Virus record (IMG/VR): IMGVR_UViG_3300037231_000129
Span: 34,025-98,024 of that record
Length of the DNA: 64,000 nt
Source of the DNA: a virus
Strand: one strand, 5' to 3'
Within the stretch, counting starts at the first letter, position 1; each line of letters starts with the position of its first letter. Shown piece after piece: positions 12,944 through 37,989 of the stretch. The position numbers and the translations under genes are program-made. The notes beneath the pieces are model-generated. The model was not told the origin of the DNA and made no database searches. It was given only the letters and a program-made list of their open reading frames with translations.

Positions 12944-13309
12944 ATGTTCAAAAAGTTCTTCCGCAAAATCGTCCCGGCAGTTCCTGGCTCCCCAAGGGGT
13001 CCTTTGGTTCTTGTCGTGACACCTCCGACGGCTCTTGCCGAGCCTGTCGTCGATTTCCTGACCCCGTTCATCCAGTTCTCTCGGATGCGGATCAATTCGC
13101 TTCGGATGTCCAGTTGCTGTCCCACCTCTGTGGTGGCACGGAAGCTGCGAAGGATCGAAGCAAAAATCGATAATTTCCAAAGACTGGTTATCTGCCCAAC
13201 CGGTCTCGATCTTGAACTCTCGATCATCATGGTCGTCGAGCTCATCAACGGGATTACCGCCGATTTGGACCAGGTCGTCAGTGAAATGGGAGTTGTCGAA
13301 ACCGTCTAG
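12944..13309 (+). CDS. hypothetical early protein
   Basis: AAGGA SD plus ACACCACC spacer; first gene of the + strand cluster. Confidence 0.6.
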   Translation: MFKKFFRKIVPAVPGSPRGPLVLVVTPPTALAEPVVDFLTPFIQFSRMRINSLRMSSCCPTSVVARKLRRIEAKIDNFQRLVICPTGLDLELSIIMVVELINGITADLDQVVSEMGVVETV

Positions 13310-13324
13310 CGCCGCGTGAGCGGC

Positions 13325-13381
13325 GTGCCTTCCCTGTGATCAAGCAGGGCAGAGAGCTGGCTGCGCTCCAGCGAAAGGCAC
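13325..13381 (+). ncRNA. hammerhead-like ribozyme, type III, CAGAGA core (A1)
   Basis: stem III GTGCCT/AGGCAC, N17=T, stem I CCCTG/CAGGG, CAGAGA, stem II GCTGG/CCAGC, GAAA. Confidence 0.7.
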
Positions 13382-13387
13382 ACCCCA

Positions 13388-13756
13388 ATGTTCAACGCAA
13401 TCCTCCCCGTCGTTCGTCCCGTCGCCATTGCTGGCGCCCGGGTTGCCGGCGGCATCGCCATTGACGTGACCAAGACCGCTGCCGGCGTCGTTGTCGGTAT
13501 CGCGCTCGCGGTCGGTCTGGTTCGTGGTCTCAACAAAATCGAAACCACGTATCAGACGGTCAAGACCCGCCGCCAGGCGCGGCAGATCGCCAAATCGGTG
13601 GCTCAGGAAATCGCAAAACGCAATCTCCTGGCCTCCAACGGCTTTCTGCACCGCGACCAAGTGGCTCCTCAGCTGCACGCTGAGATCCAACGGATGATCG
13701 ACAATGGCCGTCTGGTCCTTGTCGCCGATCCGATCTCCGATGAGCTCGCCGCGTAA
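13388..13756 (+). CDS. hypothetical protein with hydrophobic N-terminus
   Basis: ATG 7 nt after motif A1. Confidence 0.65.
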   Translation: MFNAILPVVRPVAIAGARVAGGIAIDVTKTAAGVVVGIALAVGLVRGLNKIETTYQTVKTRRQARQIAKSVAQEIAKRNLLASNGFLHRDQVAPQLHAEIQRMIDNGRLVLVADPISDELAA

Positions 13757-13801
13757 GCGGCGTGCCTTCGGGCCTCCTAAGACCACGCCGCACCATGCGG
13801 C

Positions 13802-13860
13802 GTGCCTATCCAGCACCGCTGGACAGAGAGCCGAGACCTGTCCGTCTCGGCGAAAGGCAC
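13802..13860 (+). ncRNA. hammerhead-like ribozyme, type III, CAGAGA core (A2)
   Basis: GTGCCT-A-TCCAGC acc GCTGGA-CAGAGA-GCCGAGAC ctgtcc GTCTCGGC-GAA-AGGCAC. Confidence 0.75.
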
Positions 13861-13868
13861 ACCCCAAT

Positions 13869-14138
13869 ATGCCCACCCCCACAGAAGAAATCCTCGATCC
13901 CTCCGATGAAGAGCTGGTCGAGACCCTACGCTGCATCAACAGCCTGGCTCGGCTCCGTGAAATCATGGGCGGCCGCCTCGGCAGCTCTGATCCAACGGTC
14001 GCACTCTTGGTAGCGGTCATCTTCCGTCTCGAGCGCGACTACCAAACGGATTCGAGCGAGGCTCAGCGTGACGAAATCAGACGCCTGGTGGCTTCGGAAA
14101 AAAGACACGAAATCACCAGCCTGCTGAATTCGCTATAA
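13869..14138 (+). CDS. hypothetical protein
   Basis: ATG directly after motif A2. Confidence 0.6.
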   Translation: MPTPTEEILDPSDEELVETLRCINSLARLREIMGGRLGSSDPTVALLVAVIFRLERDYQTDSSEAQRDEIRRLVASEKRHEITSLLNSL

Positions 14139-14155
14139 GAACCTGGCGCAAGCCA

Positions 14156-14214
14156 GGGCCTTCCCCACCCCGTGGGGCAGAGAGCCGGGACCTGTCAGTT
14201 CTGGCGAAAGGCAC
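14156..14214 (+). ncRNA. hammerhead-like ribozyme, type III, CAGAGA core (A3)
   Basis: GCCT-T-CCCCAC/GTGGGG-CAGAGA-GCCGGGAC/GTTCTGGC-GAA-AGGC. Confidence 0.7.
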
Positions 14215-14220
14215 ACCCCA

Positions 14221-14541
14221 ATGACTTTCAAATCCTTCCTGTCGGCGACCGGCAGCGCGATCGGTGCCACGGCAAAGATCATGAACGACGTCGCCATGAC
14301 CAATGCACGTGGCAATCTCCTGTTGAGGCTTCCGACCGAGATCGACAAGATCGATACCGCATTCGGAACCTTGACAACCGATCTTCACATGCTCGCCGCC
14401 TACGGCAAACCGAGCTCTTCCGAGCAGCTTCGCGCTACGCGGGAGATCTCTGACAAACTGGCAGCTTTGGCCGCCAAGCTTGTCGCAACATCCTCCGAAC
14501 TCGCGGCTTTGGCCGGGGCCAAGAAGATGAGCCCCGCATGA
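14221..14541 (+). CDS. hypothetical protein
   Basis: ATG directly after motif A3. Confidence 0.65.
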   Translation: MTFKSFLSATGSAIGATAKIMNDVAMTNARGNLLLRLPTEIDKIDTAFGTLTTDLHMLAAYGKPSSSEQLRATREISDKLAALAAKLVATSSELAALAGAKKMSPA

Positions 14542-14545
14542 CGGG

Positions 14546-14603
14546 GCGCCTTTCCAGCACCGCTGGACAGAGAGCCGAGACCTGTCGTCTCGGCGAAAGG
14601 CAC
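14546..14603 (+). ncRNA. hammerhead-like ribozyme, type III, CAGAGA core (A4)
   Basis: GCCT-T-TCCAGC/GCTGGA-CAGAGA-GCCGAGAC/GTCTCGGC-GAA-AGGC. Confidence 0.7.
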
Positions 14604-14608
14604 ACCCA

Positions 14609-14731
14609 ATGCTCAAAACTCTTACCCGAAAACTCCTGGTCACAGGCGTTGCGCTCCTATCGGGCGCCACGGTGGCCGGGATCACTCTCGCGATCATCTC
14701 CGTCAAGGGCGCGAAAGGCGCACCCGAATAA
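14609..14731 (+). CDS. 40-aa predicted membrane microprotein (not in ORF track)
   Basis: MLKTLTRKLLVTGVALLSGATVAGITLAIISVKGAKGAPE; ATG directly after motif A4. Confidence 0.6.
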   Translation: MLKTLTRKLLVTGVALLSGATVAGITLAIISVKGAKGAPE

Positions 14732-14753
14732 CCAAACTGCCCCTCTCGTAGGG

Positions 14754-14809
14754 GCGCCTTCCCCGCACCGCGGGGCAGAGAGCATCCCTGCAATGGATGC
14801 GAAAGGCAC
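14754..14809 (+). ncRNA. hammerhead-like ribozyme, type III, CAGAGA core (A5)
   Basis: GCCT-T-CCCCGC/GCGGGG-CAGAGA-GCATCC/GGATGC-GAA-AGGC. Confidence 0.7.
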
Positions 14810-14815
14810 ACCCCA

Positions 14816-15202
14816 ATGAGTTTTGCTTCATCCTTCGGCCAGCCGCTCGCGCGTACTGGCCTTAATTTGCTTCGTGGGTCCACGATCCAGGCCATCGCCC
14901 GCACTGTGGGCGTTGTCGCTGCCGCGGGTCTCCTCGGAGCAGTCTACCACGTCGTCAACGACGAGGCCCGCAACGTCGTCCAGCTCGCCCGCTTGCGAGG
15001 CCAGTACCGCCGGCACCGCCACGATCGAATACTCGTAGCGACGCTCGGCACGGCTCTGGATCCGCAGCTGCAATACCAGCTGCTCTCGTCGCGGGATGCA
15101 TTCAAACGCATCACACGCCTGCTGGTCGATCCGGCCGTCGACGACGTCTCACGTAACCAGCTGCGCCAAGCCATTGTCATGGCCTGCTCGCAGCCGGTTT
15201 AG
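14816..15202 (+). CDS. hypothetical protein with one hydrophobic segment
   Basis: ATG directly after motif A5. Confidence 0.65.
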   Translation: MSFASSFGQPLARTGLNLLRGSTIQAIARTVGVVAAAGLLGAVYHVVNDEARNVVQLARLRGQYRRHRHDRILVATLGTALDPQLQYQLLSSRDAFKRITRLLVDPAVDDVSRNQLRQAIVMACSQPV

Positions 15203-15251
15203 AACGGGTATCATACCCTTTCTCGTTCCCGCTTTGGTCCACCAAAGCGGG

Positions 15252-15316
15252 CGGGATACCCTCTCGACTGAGAGGGGAGTCCAGCCGGCCGCTCTGAAAG
15301 CGCCGACGAAATCCCG
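15252..15316 (+). ncRNA. divergent hammerhead-like motif, type III, GAGTCCA core (A6)
   Basis: CGGGAT/ATCCCG stem III, CCCTCTC/GAGAGGG stem I, G3-C8 swapped core, CGAAA. Confidence 0.45.
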
Positions 15317-15329
15317 AAAGGCACACCCA

Positions 15330-15746
15330 ATGGCCAAATCCAAGCTGTCCGAACGCATGCTTCCTGTGCGAGGTTCCAAGCAATCACATGAATTGCTGAT
15401 AGAGCTGGTCGCCGAACTTAAAATGGCGGCCGAAGAAGGCACTGTCTTGCATTATGCGCCTGTTTTGGACGCTTACGTGTCAAAGCGTAAAGCCAAACAG
15501 ATAAACAAATGCTTTGAGGAAATGCTCGACGAAGTTTTGCTTCGAAAATTGACGACCCTCGAATTTTTGTTTGTTGCGGCTAGACTCTGGCATTTCGCCA
15601 AGCTAGAAACAAATATGACGATGCCGATCCAAGCACGTCCATACTTACCCAAGCTGTTCGATCTCGCCGAAGAATTCGGCGTCGCGGCAGCGGATATCGC
15701 ACAAATCGAAATCGACCATGTCGTGAACCCGCCGCCCGATGATTGA
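15330..15746 (+). CDS. hypothetical protein
   Basis: GAAAGGCACACCCA-ATG leader shared with cluster. Confidence 0.65.
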   Translation: MAKSKLSERMLPVRGSKQSHELLIELVAELKMAAEEGTVLHYAPVLDAYVSKRKAKQINKCFEEMLDEVLLRKLTTLEFLFVAARLWHFAKLETNMTMPIQARPYLPKLFDLAEEFGVAAADIAQIEIDHVVNPPPDD

Positions 15747-15752
15747 TCGGGC

Positions 15753-15811
15753 GGGCCTTCCCCGCACCGCGGGGCAGAGAGCCGAGACCTGCACGTCCCG
15801 GCGAAAGGCAC
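15753..15811 (+). ncRNA. hammerhead-like ribozyme, type III, CAGAGA core (A7)
   Basis: GCCT-T-CCCCGC/GCGGGG-CAGAGA-GCCGAGAC/GTCCCGGC-GAA-AGGC. Confidence 0.7.
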
Positions 15812-15816
15812 ACAAA

Positions 15817-15942
15817 ATGCCGTTCCTCCTCGCCCTGGCATTCATTTACCTGCCGGGTTGGGTCTGGCCCGCGCTCATCATTTTCGCGTTGATCGCGCTG
15901 CTAGTGCCCGGCCTTGCACCCCCCAGAACCGGCGGTAAGTAA
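15817..15942 (+). CDS. 41-aa membrane microprotein
   Basis: MPFLLALAFIYLPGWVWPALIIFALIALLVPG..; ATG directly after motif A7. Confidence 0.6.
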   Translation: MPFLLALAFIYLPGWVWPALIIFALIALLVPGLAPPRTGGK

Positions 15943-25376: not shown

Positions 25377-25460
25377 TATCCGAAACCGCTCCGTGGCCGT
25401 GCCTCCCTCCCATGACCACGGGACGATCCGCCGGCGATCAAGCCGGCACTGATGAGGATA
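25377..25460 (+). ncRNA. hammerhead ribozyme-like, type II, CTGATGA core (B3)
   Basis: stem II TATCC/GGATA, GAAA, stem III CCGTGG/CCACGG, ATC site, stem I GCCGGC gatcaa GCCGGC, CTGATGA. Confidence 0.8.
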
Positions 25461-25464
25461 CCCC

Positions 25465-25698
25465 ATGACAACACGCATCCCGCAGGTCGTTCTGGACGCT
25501 TACGTCGCGCGTTGGTCGCATCTCGGGATATTGGCCGGGAAGGTCAATGATCCTGCTGTCACCGGCCTGCGCGCCGCACGCACATTCGCCCAGACGGTTT
25601 GCTGTCTCGAATCACCTCCCACGGTCACCATCAACCAGGTTCGCGGGCTTGCCCGCGTGGCCAATGGCGAACCCTGGGAAGCGATCCCCGACGTTTGA
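25465..25698 (+). CDS. hypothetical protein
   Basis: GAGGA SD within B3. Confidence 0.65.
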   Translation: MTTRIPQVVLDAYVARWSHLGILAGKVNDPAVTGLRAARTFAQTVCCLESPPTVTINQVRGLARVANGEPWEAIPDV

Positions 25699-25751
25699 AA
25701 CCCCGGCCCGCCGGGTTCCCGGCGCAATCTGGCGCCGGACTGATGAGGAAC
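25693..25751 (+). ncRNA. hammerhead ribozyme-like, type II (B4)
   Basis: GAAAC-CCCGGC/GCCGGG-TTC-CCGGCGC/GCGCCGG-A-CTGATGA-GGAAC. Confidence 0.7.
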
Positions 25752-25756
25752 ACCCC

Positions 25757-26002
25757 ATGCCACCAAGAAGACGCGTTGAATGGCTCGCGGCGAAAGCCGA
25801 GGGTCAATGCAACGACGTGCCCTACGACACCGAGCTGGTGAACAGCAACGGCGTCTCCATCCATTTTTGGCTGGGCGACCGTGAACCCACCGACGAACTG
25901 CTCGACGATCTCTCACGACGTGCCTGCAATCGGCGGGACATCGTGCGGATCCAATTCTCCGAGGGTCAGCCCACCGGCTTCTGGGCTCACTCCGATTTCT
26001 GA
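25757..26002 (+). CDS. hypothetical protein
   Basis: ATG after B4. Confidence 0.6.
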   Translation: MPPRRRVEWLAAKAEGQCNDVPYDTELVNSNGVSIHFWLGDREPTDELLDDLSRRACNRRDIVRIQFSEGQPTGFWAHSDF

Positions 26003-26062
26003 CGAAACCCCGGCTCAGCCGGGTTTCCGGCGCAATCCTGCGTCGGGCTGATGAAAGGAATC
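25994..26062 (+). ncRNA. hammerhead ribozyme-like, type II (B5)
   Basis: GATTTCT..CGAAAC-CCCGGC/GCCGGG-TT-TCCGGCGCA/TGCGTCGGG-CTGATGA-A-AGGAATC. Confidence 0.65.
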
Positions 26063-26064
26063 AC

Positions 26065-26577
26065 ATGCCCCTTACCGTCCTTCGCGACGGTGCAGCACCG
26101 GTCATTCTTTCCAACCGGACTGTCTTTGATCAACTTCCCGACGAGATTGACGTAGCCGAGCTGATGAGCTCGATCCGCGCCGGCGACACCGTGCCCGTTA
26201 CCTTACGGGAGATCGGTGCTGTCCGGCTGACGTCGCCAGGCATGGTGCCAACGCTGGATTACAATCCGCCCCAGCAATCGTTGGCTCTGTCCACGGCGCA
26301 TCCCATGCCCGTGGATCGGCCGTTCGAACTCGAATGCCGGATCCTGGTTCCAATCGATGCCATGATCAATTGCCATGCCCCCTCCAAAAAGGAGGCTATG
26401 GAATTGGCCAACAAGGTTTTCGATGGTGTCAGGCAGGCGCCTTCGAGTTTCCAGGTGGTGGTGAACCGCGATGATATAGCGGAAATCTTCCACGATCTGG
26501 AGAACGGCATGTCGCGCAGACGCTTCGACCTGATTGGCGCCCACAACCTGGTGGTCAATCGAACGGAAGAACGATGA
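26065..26577 (+). CDS. hypothetical protein
   Basis: AAGGA SD within B5. Confidence 0.65.
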   Translation: MPLTVLRDGAAPVILSNRTVFDQLPDEIDVAELMSSIRAGDTVPVTLREIGAVRLTSPGMVPTLDYNPPQQSLALSTAHPMPVDRPFELECRILVPIDAMINCHAPSKKEAMELANKVFDGVRQAPSSFQVVVNRDDIAEIFHDLENGMSRRRFDLIGAHNLVVNRTEER

Positions 26578-26590
26578 AAGAATCCAGCCC

Positions 26591-27166
26591 ATGGCAAATC
26601 TGACTGTTTACCGCCAGCAAGAGCCACCGTTTTCAATGACGATGGCCAACTGCCTGGCGGCCGCTGCCACCCAGGAAGACACCGATCTGATTGCCCTGTC
26701 CATGCGCACCAAGCGCCCTGCTCTGGTGGGCCTCGACAGCCGGTCGTCGATCATTCTACCCGGTGGAGACCTCGACGGACGTACCACGTTCGAAGATCTC
26801 TACGACACCTGCCTGACATTGGTCGACCTGCAGCACATGCGGGAGGCCAATGTTAGCAACCCTGAGGATGTGCCACTGCGAGCCTACAGGCTCGAAGTGT
26901 TGTTTGCGATCGATGGCACCTGCCAAATACCGATTGCTCTTCTCGCCAGTTCTATCGGCGATGCACGCCCCCGTTTGCGTACTCTCCTCGCCAAGGATGT
27001 TATGTTCCGCGAAGCCCTGTTTGACGCTGTCATTCAGGCTATCGACCGGAACTTTCGGGCTGAGGAGGATATCGTATTCCGGGTGCGGGAGAGCAGCATG
27101 GACGATCGCTCCATCATCCCGCCCCTGCTCCCAGGGGCCGGGCCAGAGTGGCGCATTCTTGAGTAA
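26591..27166 (+). CDS. hypothetical protein
   Basis: ATG 26591, follows previous gene. Confidence 0.6.
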   Translation: MANLTVYRQQEPPFSMTMANCLAAAATQEDTDLIALSMRTKRPALVGLDSRSSIILPGGDLDGRTTFEDLYDTCLTLVDLQHMREANVSNPEDVPLRAYRLEVLFAIDGTCQIPIALLASSIGDARPRLRTLLAKDVMFREALFDAVIQAIDRNFRAEEDIVFRVRESSMDDRSIIPPLLPGAGPEWRILE

Positions 27167-27168
27167 GT

Positions 27169-27231
27169 GAAAACCCCGTAGCGGATACCGCCGCGGGGTT
27201 TTGCTTGCATTCAGCAAGCATTGATAAGGAA
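27169..27231 (+). ncRNA. hammerhead-like, type II, TTGATAA core (B6)
   Basis: GAA-AACCCCG/CGGGGTT-T-TGCTTGC/GCAAGCA-TTGATAA-GGAA; weak stem II. Confidence 0.65.
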
Positions 27232-27239
27232 CACACCCA

Positions 27240-27482
27240 ATGTCTGACGAACCCAAGATCCTTGACGGGATCGCTATGCCCCCGATCCACCCCTCGATCA
27301 CCATGGACTTGGTTCTCGAAGCCATGGATCGCTCACCAAGCGAGACAGACGCCCTCGGCTTCTGCCTGGCGTGTGGCGAGAGCGTGCGAGAGATCGCTAC
27401 GAGCACCAGGCGCGAGACATGCGGCTTCTGCGGTTGCCCTGCCGTCTTCGGCGCCGAGGAAATCATGTTCATTCTCGCCTGA
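27240..27482 (+). CDS. small zinc-finger protein, paralog 1
   Basis: GFCLACG..CGFCG.PAVFGAEE. Confidence 0.7.
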   Translation: MSDEPKILDGIAMPPIHPSITMDLVLEAMDRSPSETDALGFCLACGESVREIATSTRRETCGFCGCPAVFGAEEIMFILA

Positions 27483-27533
27483 TCCGAACCTGGGCCACGC
27501 CCGGGCGCGGGCATTTCGCCCGCTTGAAAAGGA
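27483..27533 (+). ncRNA. hammerhead-like, type II, TTGAAAA core (B7)
   Basis: TCC-GAA-CCTGGGC/GCCCGGG-C-GCGGGC/GCCCGC-TTGAAAA-GGA. Confidence 0.65.
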
Positions 27534-27540
27534 ACACCCC

Positions 27541-27786
27541 ATGTCGAAAACCGCTCAGGAGATCCTGGATGCCCTGCCCCTGCCGCCGATCCATTCGAGC
27601 GTCACGCCCGAGCGGCTCACCGAGGCGCTCACCCGCTATCAGCAGACCTTGGATAACCCAGGGTTTTGTTTGAGTTGCGGCGCCGAGGCCGAGGGCTGCG
27701 AACCCGATGCCCGTCGCTACCACTGCGACGAGTGCGGACAGCCCGCCGTCTTCGGCGCCGAGGAACTCGTGCTGATGACGATGTAG
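27541..27786 (+). CDS. small zinc-finger protein, paralog 2
   Basis: NPGFCLSCG..GCEPDARRYHCDECG.PAVFGAEEL. Confidence 0.7.
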   Translation: MSKTAQEILDALPLPPIHSSVTPERLTEALTRYQQTLDNPGFCLSCGAEAEGCEPDARRYHCDECGQPAVFGAEELVLMTM

Positions 27787-28017
27787 GAGGCAGCCATGGC
27801 AGCGCGTCTCTGGAATCCTCACATTGGCACCCTGAAAGGCGGCCTACATCATAGTGTGGCCTACATCATTCAGATGCGGGTGCCACGCGATGAAGGCTAT
27901 GGCTCGCCCATGGTCGCCCTGTCCGATTACACCACTTCCCGCCGTACGGCGGATAGCTGGTTGGCGGATGCTCGGGTGAAGGCCGGCCGCTATCTCAGGG
28001 ATACCCGAAACAAATAA

Positions 28018-28066
28018 CCGAACCCGGGCTACACCCGGGTGCGAGCATCCCGCTCGCTTGAAAAGG
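28018..28066 (+). ncRNA. hammerhead-like, type II, TTGAAAA core (B8)
   Basis: CC-GAA-CCCGGG/CCCGGG-T-GCGAGC/GCTCGC-TTGAAAA-GG. Confidence 0.6.
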
Positions 28067-28075
28067 AAACACCCC

Positions 28076-28669
28076 ATGGCTTCCTATCGTGAACTCGCGG
28101 CCGCCATCGAGGCGCTCTGCCGCGCTATTCGTGCTCGAACGATATCGCCTGCCTCGGCGTTGCTCACGTCATGTGAAGCGCTTGCCGCGGCCGCTCGCCG
28201 TGGCATCGTTGCTCAATCGCCCTGGACGCCCTTCGAGCCAGCGACAGCGCCGCCGATCTCCGAACGGGCACTGCAGCTCACCGCTGAAAGACTGAACCTG
28301 CCCCTTGAGGACGTCCGTCGTGAGTTGACCGACGAAATCCAGGGACCGCAGATCTTCATCAACAGCCGCTACCAGGTCGCCATGCGGCTTTGGGAACCCG
28401 GCGTCATGTATCTGTCGATCAAGCGTCTGGACCAGCAACCCATCCGGTCCTGGCGCGACCTGCAGCGGATCAAGACCGAACTGGTTGGCCCCGAAAACGA
28501 AGGGGTCGAACTGTTCCCCGCGGAATCGCGGCTCATCGATCGGGCCAACCAGTTCCACCTGTTCATTTTGACCGATCCAGCGGCGCGGTTCCCGTTCGGT
28601 TACAAGCACACCCGCGACGTCGGCCCTCCCGTTGGCCTTGGCGAGGCGCAGGAACCATTCGAGGCATAA
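28076..28669 (+). CDS. phage hypothetical protein
   Basis: YLSIKRLD..PIRSWRDLQRIK.ELVGPE.EGVELFPAESRLID.ANQFHL motif resembles a recurrent phage family. Confidence 0.7.
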   Translation: MASYRELAAAIEALCRAIRARTISPASALLTSCEALAAAARRGIVAQSPWTPFEPATAPPISERALQLTAERLNLPLEDVRRELTDEIQGPQIFINSRYQVAMRLWEPGVMYLSIKRLDQQPIRSWRDLQRIKTELVGPENEGVELFPAESRLIDRANQFHLFILTDPAARFPFGYKHTRDVGPPVGLGEAQEPFEA

Positions 28670-28670
28670 T

Positions 28671-28715
28671 CCGAACCCCTTCGGGGGTGCGAGCAATCAA
28701 GCTCGCTTGAAAAGG
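28671..28715 (+). ncRNA. hammerhead-like, type II, TTGAAAA core (B9)
   Basis: CC-GAA-CCCC ttcg GGGG-T-GCGAGC aatcaa GCTCGC-TTGAAAA-GG. Confidence 0.6.
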
Positions 28716-28723
28716 CTACACCC

Positions 28724-28926
28724 ATGTCGAGGCACCCTCAATTCAGAATGGGATTTAAGACCGGCAACAATGCTTTCGATTACGGTCTGGGCATCCTGGA
28801 ATCCATCGCATTTTGACCGAGATCAACGCCAAAATCGCTGATGGCGATCGAATAGGTAAGATCATGGACAGCAACGGCAATTCCATCGGCCAGTGGTCAC
28901 TGGAATTGCCGGACGATAAAGATTGA
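28724..28926 (+). pseudogene. small phage gene with apparent 1-nt frameshift near 28800
   Basis: MSRHPQFRMGFKTGNNAFDYGLGILE continues in another frame as HRILTEINAKIADG..GKIMDSNGNSIGQW. Confidence 0.55.
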
Positions 28927-28927
28927 G

Positions 28928-28979
28928 CCGAACCCGCGGCGCAAGCCCGGGCGCGAGCGATCAAGCTCGCTTGATAAGG
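28928..28979 (+). ncRNA. hammerhead-like, type II, TTGATAA core (B10)
   Basis: CC-GAA-CCCG.GGC gcaa GCC CGGG-C-GCGAGC gatcaa GCTCGC-TTGATAA-GG. Confidence 0.65.
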
Positions 28980-28988
28980 AAACACCCA

Positions 28989-29423
28989 ATGGGATACACA
29001 CATTTTTGGTTTGCACCCGAAGCAATCAGACCCCGCATCTGGTGGGTCGTGATGGCCGACGCGCTTAAGTTGGTGGAAGCATTCCCAGGCCCTGGTGGCC
29101 TCTGCATGGGCATCGAGAACCAAGCCCAGCGAGCCTTCGTCTCACGCGAGGAAATCCGCTTCAATGGCGGACCAGGCGCGCAGGCGGAGGATTTCAGGCT
29201 CACCCGGGAAGCCGGCAAACGGTATAGCTCCTGCAAGACCCAGCATCAGCCCTATGAACGGCTGGTCTGTGCTATACTTGCCTCCACCGCTGATCGTACT
29301 CGGCTCATTCGCGTCACCAGCGATGGCAATCATCACGATTGGTTACCATATATAGAGTGGGCGTCCACGGTGTTGCGGCGTCCACTCCCGATGCCGATCC
29401 ATACCAACGAAATCACAGGGTAA
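28989..29423 (+). CDS. phage hypothetical protein
   Basis: MGYTHFW..IRFNG..EDF..CKT...PY...VCAIL..V.SDG motif resembles a recurrent phage family. Confidence 0.7.
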   Translation: MGYTHFWFAPEAIRPRIWWVVMADALKLVEAFPGPGGLCMGIENQAQRAFVSREEIRFNGGPGAQAEDFRLTREAGKRYSSCKTQHQPYERLVCAILASTADRTRLIRVTSDGNHHDWLPYIEWASTVLRRPLPMPIHTNEITG

Positions 29424-29480
29424 CGAACCCCACCGCCCGGTGGGGACGCCGGCGATCAAGCCGGCACTGAGGAGTAACCC
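29418..29480 (+). ncRNA. hammerhead-like, type II, CTGAGGA core (B11)
   Basis: GGGTAAC-GAA-CCCCACCG/CGGTGGGG-A-cGCCGGC gatcaa GCCGGCa-CTGAGGA-GTAACCC. Confidence 0.7.
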
Positions 29481-29481
29481 T

Positions 29482-30303
29482 ATGGCAGATCTCGACATTA
29501 TCGAACTCATGCGGAGCCCGCTGACCCAAAGCGGGAAATCCTCGAACTTCCTGCGCCTGGTGCTGTCCGAAGCCGCAAGCTACGGCATGCCGGCGCAGGT
29601 GGTTGCTACACTCGACGACATAGCGGCGATGCTCGGCTACTACCGGCCCCTGCCAGAGGGGCAGGCCGTGCATCTGGCGGGTCCTCTTGTGCAATGGCGT
29701 ACCGACCGGCAACAGCCGGTGCTGGAACGCATCACGGAAATCGAAGGCCTGGCGCTCAAACAGCGTGCCCTCGTTGCTTTCGGCGGCGCACCACCCGACC
29801 ACCGGGTAGGCACCGCGGAGATCATCGTCGCGCTGTCCAACTGCCATAAGAGCTTCATGCCAAAGCCCTATTATGAGATTTGGGCATGGGCTTGTACCAC
29901 CGTCATGGCGCATCTGACCGGCGAAAACCCCGAGAAGATCCGCAAGACGAATGAGTGGCCGCAAGTTTTCGACAACGATGTGCTCCGCCCCGGCGGCCGT
30001 CTGCACCCCACTTACACGGAGATCGCCACCTCTATTCGTCGCGTCAGCATTGATTCGATGCGAGGCGATGAAGAAAACCCACGGGTCCGGCTGCGGCCCC
30101 TTGCTCTGGTGTTTCTCCACGCGCATCAACGGTATCTCAACGAAGCCAAGCACGAAGCTGGTTCCGTCGAGTTGCTACAGGTTGAGGCGGTGGAAAACGC
30201 GATCAAGTCGATCCACAGCATGTTTCCCGATATCACTCAGGACGAGATCAACGCCGTTGATTTCACTGAGGAAGTCTCAAAGCTCGCAGAGCTGAGCATT
30301 TAG
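29482..30303 (+). CDS. hypothetical protein (probable remote paralog of 33192-33779)
   Basis: GAGGAG SD within B11. Confidence 0.7.
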   Translation: MADLDIIELMRSPLTQSGKSSNFLRLVLSEAASYGMPAQVVATLDDIAAMLGYYRPLPEGQAVHLAGPLVQWRTDRQQPVLERITEIEGLALKQRALVAFGGAPPDHRVGTAEIIVALSNCHKSFMPKPYYEIWAWACTTVMAHLTGENPEKIRKTNEWPQVFDNDVLRPGGRLHPTYTEIATSIRRVSIDSMRGDEENPRVRLRPLALVFLHAHQRYLNEAKHEAGSVELLQVEAVENAIKSIHSMFPDITQDEINAVDFTEEVSKLAELSI

Positions 30304-30365
30304 CCGAACAACCGCCCGGGCCCAGCGCCTGGGTGGTTTAGCGCCAACACGGCGCCAGACGAGGC
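30303..30365 (+). ncRNA. hammerhead-like, type II, CAGACGA core (B12)
   Basis: GCC-GAA-c-AACCGCCCGGG/CCTGGGTGGTT-ta-GCGCC/GGCGC-CAGACGA-GGC. Confidence 0.55.
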
Positions 30366-30394
30366 AATTCTGCTCGCTGCACCGGGATATCCCG

Positions 30395-30703
30395 ATGGCT
30401 GATCACAAACGAAAACCCGCCAAAACCACGAAATTTCCGAAAAAGTTTCGCATGAAACTGGAAAAAATCGTGGAGGCCAAAGCCGGGCGGGCATCGGAAG
30501 CGACGAGAGAAGAGGCATTCGACAAGATTGCCGACGTTCTCGGCCGCGAACTGCTGACGCCCGGCTCGGTCTACGCGACGCACACGGTGATCGACGAAGC
30601 GAATTTTCGTCTAACCTCGCGTCACTGGATCCAGCCGATCGACAAGCTTCGCTACCTGTCGGTTCCTGCTCCCTGGCTTCCCGAAACCCCGGCCTCCTCG
30701 TGA
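30395..30703 (+). CDS. hypothetical basic protein
   Basis: 102-aa ORF in cluster. Confidence 0.55.
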   Translation: MADHKRKPAKTTKFPKKFRMKLEKIVEAKAGRASEATREEAFDKIADVLGRELLTPGSVYATHTVIDEANFRLTSRHWIQPIDKLRYLSVPAPWLPETPASS

Positions 30704-30744
30704 GGCCGGGATATGCCGGCGATCAAGCCGACACTGATGAGGAA
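30678..30744 (+). ncRNA. hammerhead ribozyme-like, type II (B13)
   Basis: CC-GAAAC-CCCGGCCTC/GAGGCCGGG-ATA-TGCCGGC gatcaa GCCGACA-CTGATGA-GG. Confidence 0.75.
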
Positions 30745-30750
30745 CACCCC

Positions 30751-31074
30751 ATGAGATACTGCAAAATCATCAACGGATTGCTCTACGACACCGAGACTGC
30801 CGACCTGATCTGCGACATAACTCCGAAAGAGGCCGGCCAATCTCGCAGCGATTTCAACTACGATGACACTGGGCTCTACCGCACCCCCGGCAAGAGGTTT
30901 TTCATCGCCGGGGAAGGAGGTCCCACTTCCCGCTGGAGCACGCCTGTGAACAACGGTCTTTTCGAAGGCAATGGCCTGAGAGAAATTACCGAAGAAGAGG
31001 CAAAAGCGTTCGTCGAGGAATTCGCCTCGGTCGAGATGTATATCGCAGTTTTCGGCGAGCCCGATTCTGCTTAA
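30751..31074 (+). CDS. phage hypothetical protein
   Basis: KIING.LYDTETA..LYRT..GKRFFIAGEGGP.SRW motif. Confidence 0.7.
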   Translation: MRYCKIINGLLYDTETADLICDITPKEAGQSRSDFNYDDTGLYRTPGKRFFIAGEGGPTSRWSTPVNNGLFEGNGLREITEEEAKAFVEEFASVEMYIAVFGEPDSA

Positions 31075-31136
31075 GCGAAACCCCGGCCTCCTCGTGAGGC
31101 CGGGATATGCCGGTATTTCGCCGGCGCTGATGAGGC
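31075..31136 (+). ncRNA. hammerhead ribozyme-like, type II (B14), at end of cluster
   Basis: 38 nt identical to B13, then stem I TGCCGGT/GCCGGCG, CTGATGAG; no downstream + ORF. Confidence 0.7.
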
Positions 31137-31137
31137 C

Positions 31138-31923
31138 CTAAGCCGGCAACGATGCCACGTCCGCCGAGAGCGACGCCCAATCCAGGTCGGATGGAGCGAG
31201 CCCCGTGGTGGTGATCCAGAACCGCGACAGCGCGACGTCGGTGGCGAGCCAATACCTGGAGAGAAAATCAGGGTGCATCCACACCTGCTCCGCCCACGTC
31301 TCGCCATTGAGATAGCCGTCGCGCTGGCCGCCCACGGCAATGCTGTGCTGACCCCAGCCACCAGGCTCCCAGCCTGTCCCGGTGCCAGGCGCATCCCCCC
31401 AAGCACTCACCGGGGCCTGCAGCAGCGCCTCGGGCAGCGCCAGGGTGATGCGGACCGGGCCGGCCAGATCGATCGCCACCGGGGTGTCCGCCAGGTCAGC
31501 GTGCGTCCAGCCGATGACGTCGAGGTCGTTGGCCGGATTGCCGAGCGGCAACCCTTGCGTCGCCCACCAGGCCATGAACTCATTGGTGTTGGTGCCCGAG
31601 CCCATACCGGGTGGCGTGTAGCCCGTGCGCTGGGTGTACAGGCCGAGACAGCCGGCCGTCGTCGGCAAGTAGCTGTTCGGTCCCCAGGCATGATGTGCCC
31701 GGGCGCGGGCGATCTGGAAGGCGCTCACCTCGACGCAATTACCGGCGTCATTGTTGCCCAGCATGGGATCGGGGCCGCTAGCGAAATCGATCCCGTCGAA
31801 CCAGTCGGTTTCCGGTTTGGTCTGGGGCAGCTGCAGCAGTGAAGCGAAAGCGCGAATCACGGCGGGCCGGGGCGTATGGATCGCCCCGGTGCAACGTTCG
31901 ATCATCTTACTGTACCGAAGCAA
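31138..31923 (-). CDS. papain-like cysteine peptidase family protein
   Basis: MLGNNDAGNCV (Cys), GQHSIAVGG (His), ETW. Confidence 0.55.
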   Translation of the reverse strand: MLRYSKMIERCTGAIHTPRPAVIRAFASLLQLPQTKPETDWFDGIDFASGPDPMLGNNDAGNCVEVSAFQIARARAHHAWGPNSYLPTTAGCLGLYTQRTGYTPPGMGSGTNTNEFMAWWATQGLPLGNPANDLDVIGWTHADLADTPVAIDLAGPVRITLALPEALLQAPVSAWGDAPGTGTGWEPGGWGQHSIAVGGQRDGYLNGETWAEQVWMHPDFLSRYWLATDVALSRFWITTTGLAPSDLDWASLSADVASLPA

Positions 31924-32443
31924 CTTGCAGGTAAGCCAGACCCAGCAGGCTGAACATGCTGGCTTCGGTGGGATTCTTGTCGATGCCGGCGAGGTGGGTG
32001 ATGTGGTTGATCATCTCCGCCTGCTTGTTCGCGGTGGCGACGTCGGCCTTCAATTTCTGGAAGTCGAACATCGCCTTGGCATCGACCGGCGCGGTCACGG
32101 TGCCAGGCATTGGCGCGAGAACCGCAACCAATCCCAGGATCGAGGGCAGGAAGCTGCCCAACTGGCTGATCGTGTTGGTGACATCCGTCAGCACGGACGA
32201 AGCCGTGGTGCCGGAGGTTCCCAAGTTCAGCGCTGCCACGTCCGTGGACAGTTTCGACGTGGCCGCGGCGACCTGCTGGAGCTCCGTCGTGGTGAGCGGC
32301 TGGCCGTTGGCGTCGGCCTCGATGTCAGTGATCAGCGTCGCGGTGTCGCCGGCGACGGCGCTGATTGCGGTCGAGCTGGTCGAGCTGCAAGACGCGACCA
32401 GCAGCGCGGCCGTGGATGCGCCGACGAGGAGAACTTTTTTCAT
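31907..32443 (-). CDS. lipoprotein
   Basis: MKK + hydrophobic stretch + LVASC lipobox. Confidence 0.7.
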   Translation of the reverse strand: MKKVLLVGASTAALLVASCSSTSSTAISAVAGDTATLITDIEADANGQPLTTTELQQVAAATSKLSTDVAALNLGTSGTTASSVLTDVTNTISQLGSFLPSILGLVAVLAPMPGTVTAPVDAKAMFDFQKLKADVATANKQAEMINHITHLAGIDKNPTEASMFSLLGLAYLQVASVQ

Positions 32444-32479
32444 CCGAGTGGCCTTTCTACGATGTGGCGATGGGTCGCC

Positions 32480-32791
32480 TTATGAGCCGGTGGCGGGTGC
32501 CGGCGACGGTGCGGGTTGCGAGAGCGAAGCGGCAAACGCGGTTGCGGCGGCCAGGACCGTCTCGCCGGCGTTCTCGATCTGCACCACGGGCACGCCGTGT
32601 GCCTCGGCCGACGCAATGCCGGCGGCCAGGGCCTCCGAGATCAGCGGCGAGCTTGCCGTCAGGGTCGTCAGGCTCTCCTCGGCCACCGCGACCTTGCCGA
32701 CCAGCCAAACCGCCGCGTGTTCGACCGCGGTCAGCCCTTCGTGGCCAATTTGTTCAAGCTTCTGGACGATTGTCATCGAGGGATCGGACAT
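32480..32791 (-). CDS. hypothetical Ala-rich protein
   Basis: GGAGG SD. Confidence 0.65.
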   Translation of the reverse strand: MSDPSMTIVQKLEQIGHEGLTAVEHAAVWLVGKVAVAEESLTTLTASSPLISEALAAGIASAEAHGVPVVQIENAGETVLAAATAFAASLSQPAPSPAPATGS

Positions 32792-32897
32792 GGGAATCCT
32801 CCAAATATATTAGGTTTATCCAGCGGATTGTTCATGCGCGCATTTTTGGTTTGCGGCGAGTCACAAAATCACAGGGTAGTGTTTCAATTTGATCTGT

Positions 32898-32953
32898 GAA
32901 AGCCCCGCATTTTACTAGGAGCTCTGCCGGCACCCCGCCGGCGCTGATGAGGA
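32898..32953 (+). ncRNA. hammerhead ribozyme-like, type II (B15)
   Basis: GAA-AGC..GCT-C-TGCCGGC/GCCGGCG-CTGATGA-GGA; weak stem II. Confidence 0.65.
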
Positions 32954-32957
32954 CACC

Positions 32958-33125
32958 ATGAAATACGCTGTGATTCCCAGCTCCTGGCTCACCACCGGCT
33001 GGGGCTGGAGCGCCCGCCGTCTCATTGTCCTGCAACGGATGGCGATGCGATACGAACTGCCGTTGGACGATCCAACGCGGCTGGAAGGCCTGTATCGCCA
33101 CGTCTGCTTTGAGATATGGCCTTAG
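32958..33125 (+). CDS. 55-aa hypothetical protein (not in ORF track)
   Basis: MKYAVIPSSWLTTGWGWSARRLIVLQ..; fills the gap between B15 and B16. Confidence 0.6.
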   Translation: MKYAVIPSSWLTTGWGWSARRLIVLQRMAMRYELPLDDPTRLEGLYRHVCFEIWP

Positions 33126-33187
33126 TGCGAACCCCTGCCTCCCGATCGGCAGGGGTCCGGGACAATCAAGTCCCGACTGATGAGCAC
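33125..33187 (+). ncRNA. hammerhead ribozyme-like, type II (B16)
   Basis: GTGC-GAA-CCCCTGCC/GGCAGGGG-TC-CGGGAC aatcaa GTCCCG-A-CTGATGA-GCAC. Confidence 0.75.
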
Positions 33188-33191
33188 CCCC

Positions 33192-33779
33192 ATGAAAAAC
33201 CAACCCTGCTACGTCTCCGCGGACGACAACAACATCAAATTGTTCCGGACCATGGCCGCCGTCGGTTTACCGATGAGCCTGCTGGGCCAATTGATCGCAA
33301 CGCTCCGCGTCGACCTGAATATTCCGATCGCGATGCTACGCTACGTGTTCGGACCGCTGGTCATACATGTGCCACCCGGCACCCCAAGCGGCGATATGGC
33401 ATGGCTTGACCGCAAAACCATCGATCGCTGGAAACCACGGGTTTACGTCGAACGACTGGAGATCCTGTGTGGCGAAGTACCAGACATCGTCTCGGCGACG
33501 GAAATCTGGCTGGTCACCACGAACGCACTTCATGAAGCACCACCGCGGCATCAGCTGGCGGAGGTTGTTCTATGGGCCGCGAATCGTGCGCTGATCCGCT
33601 CCGGTCAGGAGAACCCCTTGACCAAGGCCGACAACACCTATCGGCTGGCGTCGGATGAAGATGTCATCGAGGGCAACTATTCGATGGAATATCGCGAATT
33701 GTCCCGTCAGATCATCGCCAAGGTGATTGCACACAGCCAGATCGAGCGACGACCGCGCCGCGCCGCCGCGGCGGAATGA
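33192..33779 (+). CDS. hypothetical protein
   Basis: ATG after B16. Confidence 0.65.
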   Translation: MKNQPCYVSADDNNIKLFRTMAAVGLPMSLLGQLIATLRVDLNIPIAMLRYVFGPLVIHVPPGTPSGDMAWLDRKTIDRWKPRVYVERLEILCGEVPDIVSATEIWLVTTNALHEAPPRHQLAEVVLWAANRALIRSGQENPLTKADNTYRLASDEDVIEGNYSMEYRELSRQIIAKVIAHSQIERRPRRAAAAE

Positions 33780-34130
33780 GACAAGCCCCTACGTTTTCAA
33801 CGTGGGGGCTTTTCCTCTTGCGCGATCGGTGTTTATATGGTCCATGATAGTGTGATAAAACTGGAACCCGGGGGAAAGCTGCCCATGTTAGGGAGTGGCC
33901 ACGCAAGGCTCTTGGAGGTTGTCATGGCCGGTAAGACCCGCAAGACAGCCGGGAGGGAAGAGTATCGCAAGGCTCGACGCGATCTGGCGAGCAGCATGTT
34001 TGAGCCGCTGCTGCTGGCTCTCGTCCTCTACCTGCTAGCGCGGTGGCTTTTCTCCGCGGTTTTCTAGGCGCCGTCTTCCGTCCGGAAGGCGGCGTTTGCG
34101 TATGAGCTGTCTGCAACGAGGAGATTGTCG

Positions 34131-35285
34131 ATGAGCGATCACGGAATTCCGTCCGGCTATAACGACCGCCACGACGTCGCCACGCGCGATCCCGAGATTC
34201 TTCGCCCCAAACCGGCCAGCTTGGTCTCGGTCAGCCCGGAGCTGGTCCAGGAGATCATCCGCAAGCTGACCGAGGGCGGCGCGGACGCGACGATCGTCAA
34301 GGCGATGATGGCCGCGTTGAACGCCGCCGGCGGCCAGTCCGAGCCGCTGCCGATCATGACCAACCCGGAGCTCGTCGCCAAAGCGATCATCGGTGTGATG
34401 GGGAAGGTCAAGGAAGTTGCGAAGAGCGGATACAACAAGGAAGGCAAGTACGGCTACGTCTACTTCGGTGATGTTAGAGCGTTGTTACAAGACGCTTTTG
34501 TCTCGGTCGGGCTTACCCTCAACCAACGGCAGGTCGGTAATCCCCGCGTCGTCGGCAAGACGTTGATGATCAAATACACCTTCGACGCTTTCACAGCGGA
34601 CGGCGGCATTATTCTCGGGATAACGACCACGACAGGCGCCTGTCGTTTCGAGTTCAAGAGCGGCACTTTTGACGACAAAGCGCCGAACAAGGCCTTCACG
34701 GCGGGTGAAAAATCGGCCATGACGGCGCTGTTCAAGATCGCGCCGGACGATAATCAAAGCGAACGAACCCTCGACGCGGATCCCGACACGCAAGGCATGT
34801 ATGACGAAGAGCCGGCCGAGCGTACCAACTTTCGCGGTCCGGATGATCGAGGTCGTGATCGTGGTCGTGATGAGCCCCGGCGGGGGGGCGATCGCCCGCG
34901 CGATGAACCGCGTGATCGCGGCCGGCGCGACGACCCACCGCGGGATGACCCGCCTCGAGGTGGCTACGATAATCGCGACGATCCGCCGAGCGATCGGGGT
35001 CGTGGCAGTCCCGATCGCGGCCGAGGCGGCGGCAACGCCGATGAACCGCCGGACGGACGATGGGATGACGGCCCTCGCGAGCCGCCGCCGTCCGACGTCA
35101 CCGCCGGCCACCGCGACCTGGTAACCGATTTCCAGCGCAAGCAGGATGCCTGCAGCTCGGAGGAGGATGCCGCCGCCTTGTGGCGGGATGATGCCGCATT
35201 GCTCACCGAGACGAACGACCGGACCTACACTCACCTGGTCGACACATACGAAAAACGGTGGGGCATTCGCCCGCCGGCAATCTAG
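34131..35285 (+). CDS. ERF-family single-strand annealing protein with R/D/P-rich tail
   Basis: KSGYN...YGYV..GDV...GL...DDKAPNKAFT..K..LF.I..DD..D.D; next to ssb. Confidence 0.8.
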   Translation: MSDHGIPSGYNDRHDVATRDPEILRPKPASLVSVSPELVQEIIRKLTEGGADATIVKAMMAALNAAGGQSEPLPIMTNPELVAKAIIGVMGKVKEVAKSGYNKEGKYGYVYFGDVRALLQDAFVSVGLTLNQRQVGNPRVVGKTLMIKYTFDAFTADGGIILGITTTTGACRFEFKSGTFDDKAPNKAFTAGEKSAMTALFKIAPDDNQSERTLDADPDTQGMYDEEPAERTNFRGPDDRGRDRGRDEPRRGGDRPRDEPRDRGRRDDPPRDDPPRGGYDNRDDPPSDRGRGSPDRGRGGGNADEPPDGRWDDGPREPPPSDVTAGHRDLVTDFQRKQDACSSEEDAAALWRDDAALLTETNDRTYTHLVDTYEKRWGIRPPAI

Positions 35286-35309
35286 CCCTCGATCACAAGG
35301 AAACATGCC

Positions 35310-35948
35310 ATGGCTTCCAGCGCCGCGAATATCACTGTCGTCGGTTACGTCGGACAGGATCCGGAAATCCGTAAACTCGATGGTGGTCGCGAGGTCTGCA
35401 CGATCTCGATTGCCGTCTCCGGTAAGACCGGGGGCGATGAGTGGACCAATTGGTACCGCTGCTCAATCTGGCGCGAAAACGACATAGATTTTATCGATAA
35501 ATACATCAAAAAAGGCGCCTACGTCGCGGTGTTCGGCGAGTTGCACAGCCGCGAATACCGCGACCGCGAGGGCTACGACAGGACGTCGATGGACGTCAAC
35601 GCGCAACGATTTATGTCGCTCGACAAGGGCGATGGCGGCGGCCGGAGCGGCGGCGATCGCGATCGCGGGCGCGGCGGTGACGATCGGACCCGGTCTGGCG
35701 GTGGGCGCGGCGACACCCGTGGTGCTGATCGGGGCCGGGGCGGTGATGACCGAGGCGGCGGGCGTGGTGATGACCGTGGCCGCGGCGACACCCGTGGTGC
35801 TGATCGGGGCCGGGGCGGTGATGACCGTGGCCGCGGCGGCGACGCGCGTGGCGCCGATCGGGGTCGCGATACCGGTGGCCGTGGCGGCGATACCGGGCGC
35901 CCGAATGCGCAGCGGGATGCTGACCTGGACGATGAGATTCCATTTTGA
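35310..35948 (+). CDS. ssb: single-stranded DNA-binding protein
   Basis: VGYVGQDPEIR..T.WYRC..W..KKG..V.V.GEL..REY.D; C-terminal DDEIPF. Confidence 0.95.
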   Translation: MASSAANITVVGYVGQDPEIRKLDGGREVCTISIAVSGKTGGDEWTNWYRCSIWRENDIDFIDKYIKKGAYVAVFGELHSREYRDREGYDRTSMDVNAQRFMSLDKGDGGGRSGGDRDRGRGGDDRTRSGGGRGDTRGADRGRGGDDRGGGRGDDRGRGDTRGADRGRGGDDRGRGGDARGADRGRDTGGRGGDTGRPNAQRDADLDDEIPF

Positions 35949-36490
35949 CCGTTCTAATAGTTACGGTCTAGGAACTATCTGAGGGAGGTATGTCATGTCA
36001 GTATCTGCAATACAAGTGAATTCGGCTCGGCGCGCGTCGAAGCTGGTGAAAACCAATGACTGACGAAGATCTGCGCAACCTTCGGGCAATGCTGGAAACC
36101 CGACGTTCCAGCAGTATCGAAATCATCCAAAAGTTTCCGTCGCCAGCACGGTTCGGCAGCAGTTCCGAGGAACTTCTCGTCGTCGTCCGTGAAGCCATGG
36201 CTTGGCGGGCGGCGGTGCGGTCGCAATCGCACGAACCGTTCACCACAATCCATGTTCTGCCGGGGGCCGCGCTGCGCCTGTTGCTCGAACCGACAGAGCT
36301 GGTCAGTGAAACCACCGGTCCAGTCGAGGTTCGGCTCTGGAAAGGCCTGACGAACCGCGGCACCGACGTGGCGGCCTTCATCATGGCCATCGGCTCGCAG
36401 TCGCCGGAATTCGATGCCGAGGTCGGTGCCCTGCTGCGTTCGACCGAGCCACCACCGATCGTGGAGTCCCCGCTCTGAAGGAAAGCCCTG

Positions 36491-37615: not shown

Positions 37616-37931
37616 CCATGCCCGGGCGCTGCGCTAGCTGCCGCTCATGGGACGGTCATACGCAGGCTCGGTTGCGGCAGATGGGCAGTTGCGATCTCGA
37701 TGGCCAGCTCGTGCATGCTGGCTACGGCTGTCCATCGCACAGGCCCAGCGTGCGATCCCTCCAAGTTATTGTCGGCATGACCCTCACCGACCTGGTGCGT
37801 CTACGCCAAGACCACGGCGACGCGGCCGACCAGCTGCGCGAAGCGTGGCTCATCCTCTGGAAAAAACCTGACGACGATCCGACACGCTGGATGTTCGAAC
37901 GGCTGCTACGCGACTACCGCAACATACCGCC

Positions 37932-37981
37932 CTCCTGAAACAGCAATGTCCGCCGGTGATCAAGCCGGCACTGACGAGGAG
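37932..37981 (+). ncRNA. hammerhead ribozyme, type II, canonical core (B17)
   Basis: CTCC(T)-GAAA-CA gcaa TG-TC (GUC site, predicted cut after 37950)-cGCCGGT gatcaa GCCGGCa-CTGACGA-GGAG. Confidence 0.8.
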
Positions 37982-37989
37982 CACATCCC

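Follow-up and report, generated by a model that had tools for sequence, protein, structure and literature searches.

We describe a structured RNA element present in six copies in a 64,000-nt stretch of phage DNA (hereafter the window), which covers bases 34025−98024 of the 98-kb IMG/VR virus record IMGVR_UViG_3300037231_000129, from an uncultured phage and 96% complete. The six elements, called CAGAGA elements after their core, are intergenic and lie in the spacers before six early genes (13325−15811, + strand). They are members of a separate, hammerhead-derived family of RNAs that occurs in one clade of alphaproteobacterial phages (~100 kb) and prophages. The members of this family are built from three stems around a junction N3-N4-G5-A6-(N7)-R8-A9 / G12-A13-A14, with an A15.1-U16.1 pair and a non-G position 17, and they hold a 3-bp pseudoknot between the core and loop II as well as a ribosome-binding site, AAGG, locked in stem III. 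Judging from sequence, we give about even chances to the reading that these elements are hammerhead-derived, self-cleaving cistron separators with a novel pseudoknot.

No small ribozyme has been studied better than the hammerhead, whose 11 core bases are regarded as almost invariable. The natural family described here, with at least 96 members, has retained half of this core; N7 is dropped, and C3, the 'invariant' U4 and G5 have become one strand of a covarying helix with loop II. Should its members cleave, they would redefine which parts of the core are needed and would show a ribozyme whose built-in switch couples RNA cutting to the exposure of a ribosome-binding site. Should they not cleave, they would clearly illustrate how a ribozyme fold can be exapted to serve as a translational leader. 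Since consensus and Rfam searches miss the family, current counts of phage ribozymes are underestimates. The literature searched on U4A, CAGAGA and variants of the hammerhead core contained no description of such a form.

Structure and spread of the family

The heptamer CAGAGAG occurs six times in the window, always on the + strand and inside 13350−15781. By count alone this is at chance level (6.7 expected); it is the context of the copies that exceeds chance. An earlier, sequence-only reading had placed six type III hammerhead copies at these heptamers, and all six indeed satisfy a strict type III descriptor, made up in order of the 5' strand of stem III, one unpaired non-G base, the stem I hairpin, CAGAGA, a stem II hairpin closed by G-C, GAA, and the 3' strand of stem III. 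The stem pairs it had quoted (TCCAGC/GCTGGA, CCCCGC/GCGGGG, CCCTG/CAGGG, GCCGAGAC/GTCTCGGC and GCATCC/GGATGC) are all present, as are the CTG that opens loop II (6/6 copies) and the frequent ACC of loop I (4/6). The 5' strand of stem III ends in CCU and its 3' strand reads AGGC(AC); the unpaired position 17 is U in five copies and A in one. Folding with RNAfold returned the three-way junction as the minimum-free-energy structure of all six copies, with z from −1.1 to −4.9. An element heads seven of the eight short genes of the array (12944−15942), six of these elements being of the CAGAGA type and one, A6, divergent.

Two covariance models were built, R1 from the six window copies and R2 from 47 matches. 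R2 gave 96 matches in 21 loci. These include the six in the window, about 14−18 in each of three related phages of 91−105 kb (G001, G002 and G003), and several each in prophage-like stretches of three alphaproteobacterial metagenome-assembled genomes (MAGs; G008, G009 and G055) and in nine metagenome contigs, which were retrieved via a neighbouring 287-aa gene. By pattern scanning, the variant was also detected in further virus contigs and in alphaproteobacterial MAGs. A loose pattern scan of viral contigs yielded almost nothing but chance matches, G001 being the one real match, and a metagenome scan with a single protein returned nothing where an alignment-based scan succeeded. In 1.2 Mb of unrelated phage loci, R1 gave no match at E ≤ 1. 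Decayed relics and chance motifs are ruled out by the 96 members, by the covariation of their stems and by this empty control, and the earlier suggestion of a conserved, selected, hammerhead-derived family overlooked by consensus models is borne out.

Syntenic structural genes are common to G000−G003, at 40−70% identity. For the small genes that follow the six window copies, no homologues could be detected in G001−G003; we conclude that the cargo genes change whereas the RNA element stays conserved. The phages that carry the family do not share the primase, and none of 80 loci with primase-helicase relatives contained the element. Searching the GenBank phage collection with blastn returned no similar phage.

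Across 87 distinct sequences, 92.2% of 1787 cells in the stems are paired, compared with 33−43% when the partners are slid. Changes on both sides were counted in 285 cells against 74 in shuffles (0/500), and covariation is strong in all three stems; the lengths of stems I and II vary independently of each other. Among the 96 members, A15.1-U16.1 is present in every one, 15.2-16.2 is G-C in 95 and 1.2-2.2 is C-G in 95. The core retains G5 (96), A6 (94) and A9 (95), stem II closes with G10.1 (85) and C10.2 (95), and the GAA strand holds G12 (95), A13 (89, with C in 6) and A14 (95). Position 17 is U in 76 members, C in 12, A in 8 and never G. CAGAGA makes up 73 of the cores, followed by CGGAGA (3), UAGAAA (3), UGGAAA (2) and CAGAGAA (2). 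Ten cores are 7 nt long, including CAGAUGA, CAGUCGA, GUGAUCA, CUGACAA (4 copies) and one fully canonical CUGACGA. Overall, position 4 is A in 83, U in 8 and G in 5 members, and N7 is absent in 86.

The family thus resembles the type III hammerhead (RF00008, clan CL00010) in its covarying three-way junction open at stem III, in the G10.1-C11.1 pair that closes stem II, in the G12-A13-A14 strand (within a GAAA box) and the A15.1-U16.1 pair, and in an unpaired, never-G position 17. Positions 3 and 8 also covary in the hammerhead manner, but with seven C3/A8 copies as exceptions and with position 3 covarying with loop II as well. The family differs in its 6-nt CAGAGA core, in a position 4 that is A, G or U instead of an invariant U, in the general absence of N7, in the pairing of positions 3−5 with loop II, and in having no loop I−loop II contact. 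In place of the CUGANGA box that defines type III hammerheads, CAGAGA stands in 6/6 window copies and 73/96 family members. For want of this defining box, we call the elements hammerhead-like and not proven hammerheads.

Rfam models of the hammerhead clan gave no match to the six copies (13250−15850), either at the gathering score or at E ≤ 10, and the model of the RAGATH-1 pseudoknot hammerhead (RF03152) gave none at E ≤ 10. One family member, L340:13273−13333, is a descriptor-perfect canonical type III hammerhead, with CUGACGA, GAAA, the A-U pair and A at position 17, and the Rfam hammerhead models do not match it either at E ≤ 1. Since a copy with a canonical core is missed, the absent match on the six copies is uninformative; these models appear to be insensitive to GC-rich phage type III forms.

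Core−loop II pseudoknot and proposed alternative conformations

Loop II opens with three bases that form the reverse complement of core positions 3−5. Six Watson-Crick combinations of core and loop are found: CAG:CUG (75 copies, a CAGAAAA copy among them), CUG:CAG (6), CGG:CCG (2), UAG:CUA (2), UGG:CCA (2) and GUG:CAC (1). Wobble pairs complete CAG:UUG and CGG:CUG (one copy each), and the few copies left have mismatches or misaligned loops. In alignment A9, 98.9% of 278 cells in the pseudoknot columns (45−47 with 63−61) are paired, compared with 15−37% when slid, and 17 double changes stand against 1.1 in shuffles (0/500). Position 4 pairs with loop II as A-U in 79 copies, U-A in 8, G-C in 4 and G.U in 1, with no mismatch. 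A loop paired with a strand outside its hairpin and kept by compensatory changes is what marks an H-type pseudoknot, and both features are seen here.

Because core positions 3−5 covary with loop II as Watson-Crick pairs, loop II contacts the core and not loop I, so that the contact between loop II CUG and loop I ACC put forward from the sequence alone has to be given up in favour of the 3-bp pseudoknot. The description 'U4A, N7 deleted' from the same reading survives in part. In the best register, position 4 is changed and N7 absent; CAGAUGA and CAGACGA intermediates and canonical CUGACGA occur in the same arrays of related phages, and core position 1 covaries with position 5 in the manner of C3/G8 of hammerheads. 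What does not hold is a mutation of the U-turn uridine: position 4 covaries with loop II, and 'U4A' is one of the states that this base pair takes.

Covariation is also seen between positions 3 and 8, as C-G in 82 copies and U-A in 4 (alignment A7), with one further G/C copy (GUGAUCA). The seven exceptions carry C3/A8, and are the CUGANAA copies of prophage G055 (six of the seven) and CAGAAAA. An exchange of C3-G8 to U3-A8 is known from natural hammerheads (Perreault 2011, PMC3088659). As position 3 is unable to pair with position 8 and with loop II together, these data suggest that the RNA adopts two alternative conformations and that selection acts on both. The AGA linker of an H-type knot would have to span stem II from top to base, and by this geometry AGA would not lie opposite GAA at the junction. 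A base triple that covers both covariations of position 3 was ruled out on the same inferred geometry, the linker running along stem II and away from the 3:loop pair.

The arrays of G055, a prophage-like region of an alphaproteobacterial MAG (L374:17486−18819 and L375:5486−6964), contain both CUGANAA (C3/A8) and GUGAUCA (G3/C8) boxes, with matching loop II sequences CAG and CAC. Their cores are near-canonical and 7 nt long, and the pseudoknot between core and loop II is still present.

We take the RAGATH-1 hammerhead (RF03152) to be a close likeness in this respect, as judged by its description and the Rfam search: it combines a hammerhead-type core with a Watson-Crick pseudoknot and is located in phage intergenic regions. 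Stem II of the present family is, in contrast, a full 4−8-bp hairpin, and the pseudoknot consumes bases of the catalytic core, whereas in RAGATH-1 it is, by description, a peripheral contact. The variants reported for prophage hammerheads (U3-A8, A6C, an insertion after A6, U13a, U15.1-A16.1 and U10.1.U11.1, with U4C cited from a viroid study; PMC3088659) include none that lacks N7 or pairs its core with loop II.

The pseudoknot could bear on catalysis in more than one way. Tentatively, we propose a bistable ribozyme in which core positions 3−5 alternate between a hammerhead-like active site and the loop II pseudoknot, gating or locking both cleavage and release of the ribosome-binding site, or else a pseudoknotted fold that is itself a new catalytic architecture evolved from the hammerhead. 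Taken by itself, the latter seems unlikely to us. It would stack stem I, the pseudoknot and stem II coaxially and extrude position 17 at the helix junction, the likeness to a hammerhead core being only ancestral. It would account for the pseudoknot being the best-supported tertiary feature of the family, for its presence in near-canonical 7-nt cores (CUGANAA:CAG in G055, CUGACGA:CAG in L340), and for the G055 copies with G8 changed to A, which retain it yet break C3-G8. It would also place G12, G8 and A9 at the base of stem II, by geometry 7−11 bp from position 17, and would leave both the conservation of these three bases and the 3/8 covariation unexplained. Furthermore, we know of no ribozyme class with such a pseudoknotted layout, which we count against it.

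Gene context and possible functions

A start codon, counted if it opens an open reading frame of at least 30 codons, lies 5−16 nt (mode 10) 3' of A15.1 in 84 of 88 members, and is ATG in 79. This distance identifies A14-A15.1-G-G (AAGG) as the ribosome-binding site, which pairs with CCUU as part of stem III. In the window, a G+C-rich hairpin without a U-tract sits between each element and the preceding stop codon, and a strong hairpin (mean −18.8 kcal/mol for the 48 upstream nt) adjoins the 5' side of most family members. No intrinsic terminators were found on the + strand between the genes.

Elements with CAGAUGA, CAGACGA and canonical CUGACGA type III cores occur in the same arrays, and in the same position ahead of start codons, as CAGAGA elements. 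The window also contains more than ten type II hammerhead-like elements that end at start codons, three of which score 21−26 bits with the Rfam Hammerhead_II model, under its 37-bit cut-off. Two genes (window 16248−16910 and 29440−30303) are preceded by type II elements here and by CAGAGA elements at their orthologues in related phages. For the second, which encodes the 287-aa protein, CAGAGA, CGGAGA or UGGAAA elements precede the gene in 11 related contigs. The element directly upstream is CAGAGA/CUG in G001, G002, G003, L234, L347, L348 and L350, CGGAGA/CCG in L352, UGGAAA/CCA in L351 and L354, and in the window a type II hammerhead with a canonical CUGAGGA box (29418−29481). The series of core and loop pairs before this one gene is also part of the evidence for the pseudoknot. 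The swapping before orthologous genes argues that both kinds of element do the same job.

The self-cleaving reading is favoured because of the size and specificity of the family, its covarying stems, the conserved hammerhead positions, the 3/8 covariation, the intermediate cores, the orthologous swaps, the placement at start codons, the missing terminators and a prophage precedent. In prophages, hammerheads are found in clusters flanking single genes, and such hammerheads cleave in vitro (Perreault 2011, PMC3088659). Both systems have multiple copies in each phage, with one copy for every gene or short block of genes, in sense orientation and near integrase and early regions; the role proposed for the prophage hammerheads is the processing of long phage transcripts. 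Those hammerheads, unlike the elements described here, have consensus cores.

Under the self-cleaving reading, the RNA would be cut after position 17 in hammerhead fashion, in the conformation in which position 3 is paired to position 8. The cut would sever the short, 4−7-nt 5' strand of stem III, divide the polycistronic message into single-gene mRNAs and free the ribosome-binding site. The upstream piece would end in the G+C-rich hairpin as its 3' end, and the downstream piece would carry a 5'-OH at its start, followed by the hairpin of stem I. In a second, mutually exclusive conformation, the pseudoknot would form and join stem I, CAG:CUG and stem II in a single rod-like stack, pulling AGA away from GAA, so that the core is disassembled. 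It may lock the product, preventing religation and keeping GAAAGG and the ribosome-binding site single-stranded, or it may hold the ribozyme inactive before cleavage, until some signal arrives.

Several observations weigh against self-cleavage. With an A, G or U at position 4 that is held in a Watson-Crick pair with loop II, and with N7 missing from 86 of the 96 members, the canonical uridine turn cannot form. In hammerheads, U4 contacts the phosphate after A6 (PMC3088659), and this phosphate is displaced here. C3 and G5, both required in the active site of the hammerhead, are taken up by the pseudoknot, which cannot coexist with the active fold. Moreover, seven copies combine C3 with A8, six have C at position 13, and the conservation of GAAAGG and CCUU could be explained by sequestration of the ribosome-binding site alone.

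The last point leads to a second possibility, about which we are doubtful but which has to be weighed: a non-cleaving structured leader, in which a hammerhead-derived fold has lost catalysis and serves as a translational operator. Such a leader would sequester the ribosome-binding site in stem III until a phage or host factor opens or binds it, co-regulating ~6−20 early genes per genome, and may also stabilise the mRNA. In favour of this reading, AAGG and CCUU are paired throughout, the pseudoknot is kept by compensatory changes at C3-G5 that a canonical hammerhead would not allow, neither U4 nor N7 is conserved, and C3/A8 is seen in seven copies and A13C in six. Among predicted variants in an earlier study, those with highly disruptive core changes were inactive (Perreault 2011, PMC3088659). 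A simple operator, however, needs no never-G unpaired position 17 and no invariant A15.1-U16.1, nor does it need near-invariant A6, A9, G12 and A14 or 3/8 covariation. It is also at odds with the canonical hammerheads that stand in for the element before orthologous genes, and no conserved candidate binding protein was identified.

Processing by a protein was considered as well. RNase III sites between phage T7 genes are intercistronic, cut the polycistronic RNA and leave stabilising hairpins at the new ends. As intercistronic signals on polycistronic phage RNA they are functional analogues of the present elements; the T7 sites are protein-dependent duplexes, whereas the elements are putatively self-cleaving RNAs that contain a ribosome-binding site. 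That the elements are themselves non-catalytic recognition structures of this kind, for a host or phage ribonuclease, strikes us as very improbable. The one-per-gene placement, the flanking hairpins and the lack of terminators would fit any processing signal, but the elements keep hammerhead core letters and not a long duplex, and they are interchangeable with canonical hammerheads, which need no protein.

Feature coordinates and further observations

Table 1. Coordinates of the CAGAGA elements and neighbouring features in the window.
Feature	Coordinates	Strand	R2 score (bits)	Start codon	Details
Eight short genes	12944..15942	+			121, 122, 89, 106, 40, 128, 138, 41 aa
G+C-rich hairpin (example)	13310..13325	+			others end ~13801, 14157, 14547, 14755, 15754
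Copy A1	13325..13381	+	56.4	13388	stem III 5' 13325-13330; position 17 = U 13331 (putative cleavage 3' of U); stem I hairpin 13332-13349; core CAGAGA 13350-13355; stem II hairpin 13356-13372, loop CUG 13361-13363; GAA 13373-13375; stem III 3' and ribosome-binding site 13376-13381
Copy A2	13802..13860	+	70.1	13869	fold z = −4.9; position 17 = A 13808; core 13824-13829; loop II CUG 13838-13840; GAA 13852-13854
Copy A3	14156..14214	+	67.3	14221	position 17 = U 14162; core 14178-14183; loop II CUG 14192-14194; GAA 14206-14208
Copy A4	14546..14603	+	67.2	14609	position 17 = U 14552; core 14568-14573; loop II CUG 14582-14584; GAA 14595-14597
Copy A5	14754..14809	+	60.5	14816	position 17 = U 14760; core 14776-14781; loop II CUG 14788-14790; GAA 14801-14803
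Copy A7	15753..15811	+	67.2	15817	position 17 = U 15759; core 15775-15780; loop II CUG 15789-15791; GAA 15803-15805
Type II hammerhead-like boxes (CUGAUGA or CUGAGGA)	25377..37990				25449, 25740, 26048, 29467, 30734, 31127, 32944, 37971

The seventh spacer (A6, 15252−15333) has no match to model R2 and holds a larger, divergent three-way junction, laid out as GGGAU-A, a 7-bp stem I, GAGUCCA, an irregular stem II with loop CUGAA, and GAA-AUCCC, after which a second copy of the standard leader CGAAAGGCACACCCAATG follows. It looks like a replaced 5' half before the remnant 3' end of a CAGAGA element. Upstream of A2, a relic duplication (13755−13768) made up of a second hairpin and GTGCCTT, a 5' strand of stem III, lies directly 3' of the stop codon and ~35 nt ahead of the real element.

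Elsewhere in the family, copies with C at position 13 read GCA or GCU for GAA (L164:8284−8341, L164:8984−9038, L164:7607−7661 and L341:8204−8264). Most of them have A at position 17, and in the copy at L164:8284 U14 is able to pair with A17, extending stem III; these copies may be in decay or under different regulation. Across the family, loop I very often reads ACC, AUCC, AUCCC or ACCAAC (for example window 13815−13817 and L159:3948−4006), and in type II copies GAUCAA. These loop I sequences resemble pieces of the 3' end of 16S rRNA (GAUCACCUCC), and no partner for them was found.

A strict type II descriptor gave nothing, owing to mismatches beside the core, and the type II copies were inspected by eye. 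In several of these copies a base between stem I and the box is unpaired or mismatched, and C15.1-G16.1 occurs in one. The type II copy with CAGACGA that the sequence-only reading had mentioned was located, its box at 30356−30362 within an element at 30303−30365. This 7-nt box has A at position 4 and no loop II available for a pseudoknot, and the start codon lies ~33 nt downstream, not adjacent.

Two adjacent tRNA genes are located at 11449−11625 on the − strand. Together they match the Y-RNA-like YrlA family weakly (29.5 bits against a cut-off of 69), and the second (11526−11625, 30.5 bits) carries a 33-nt insertion in its anticodon arm.

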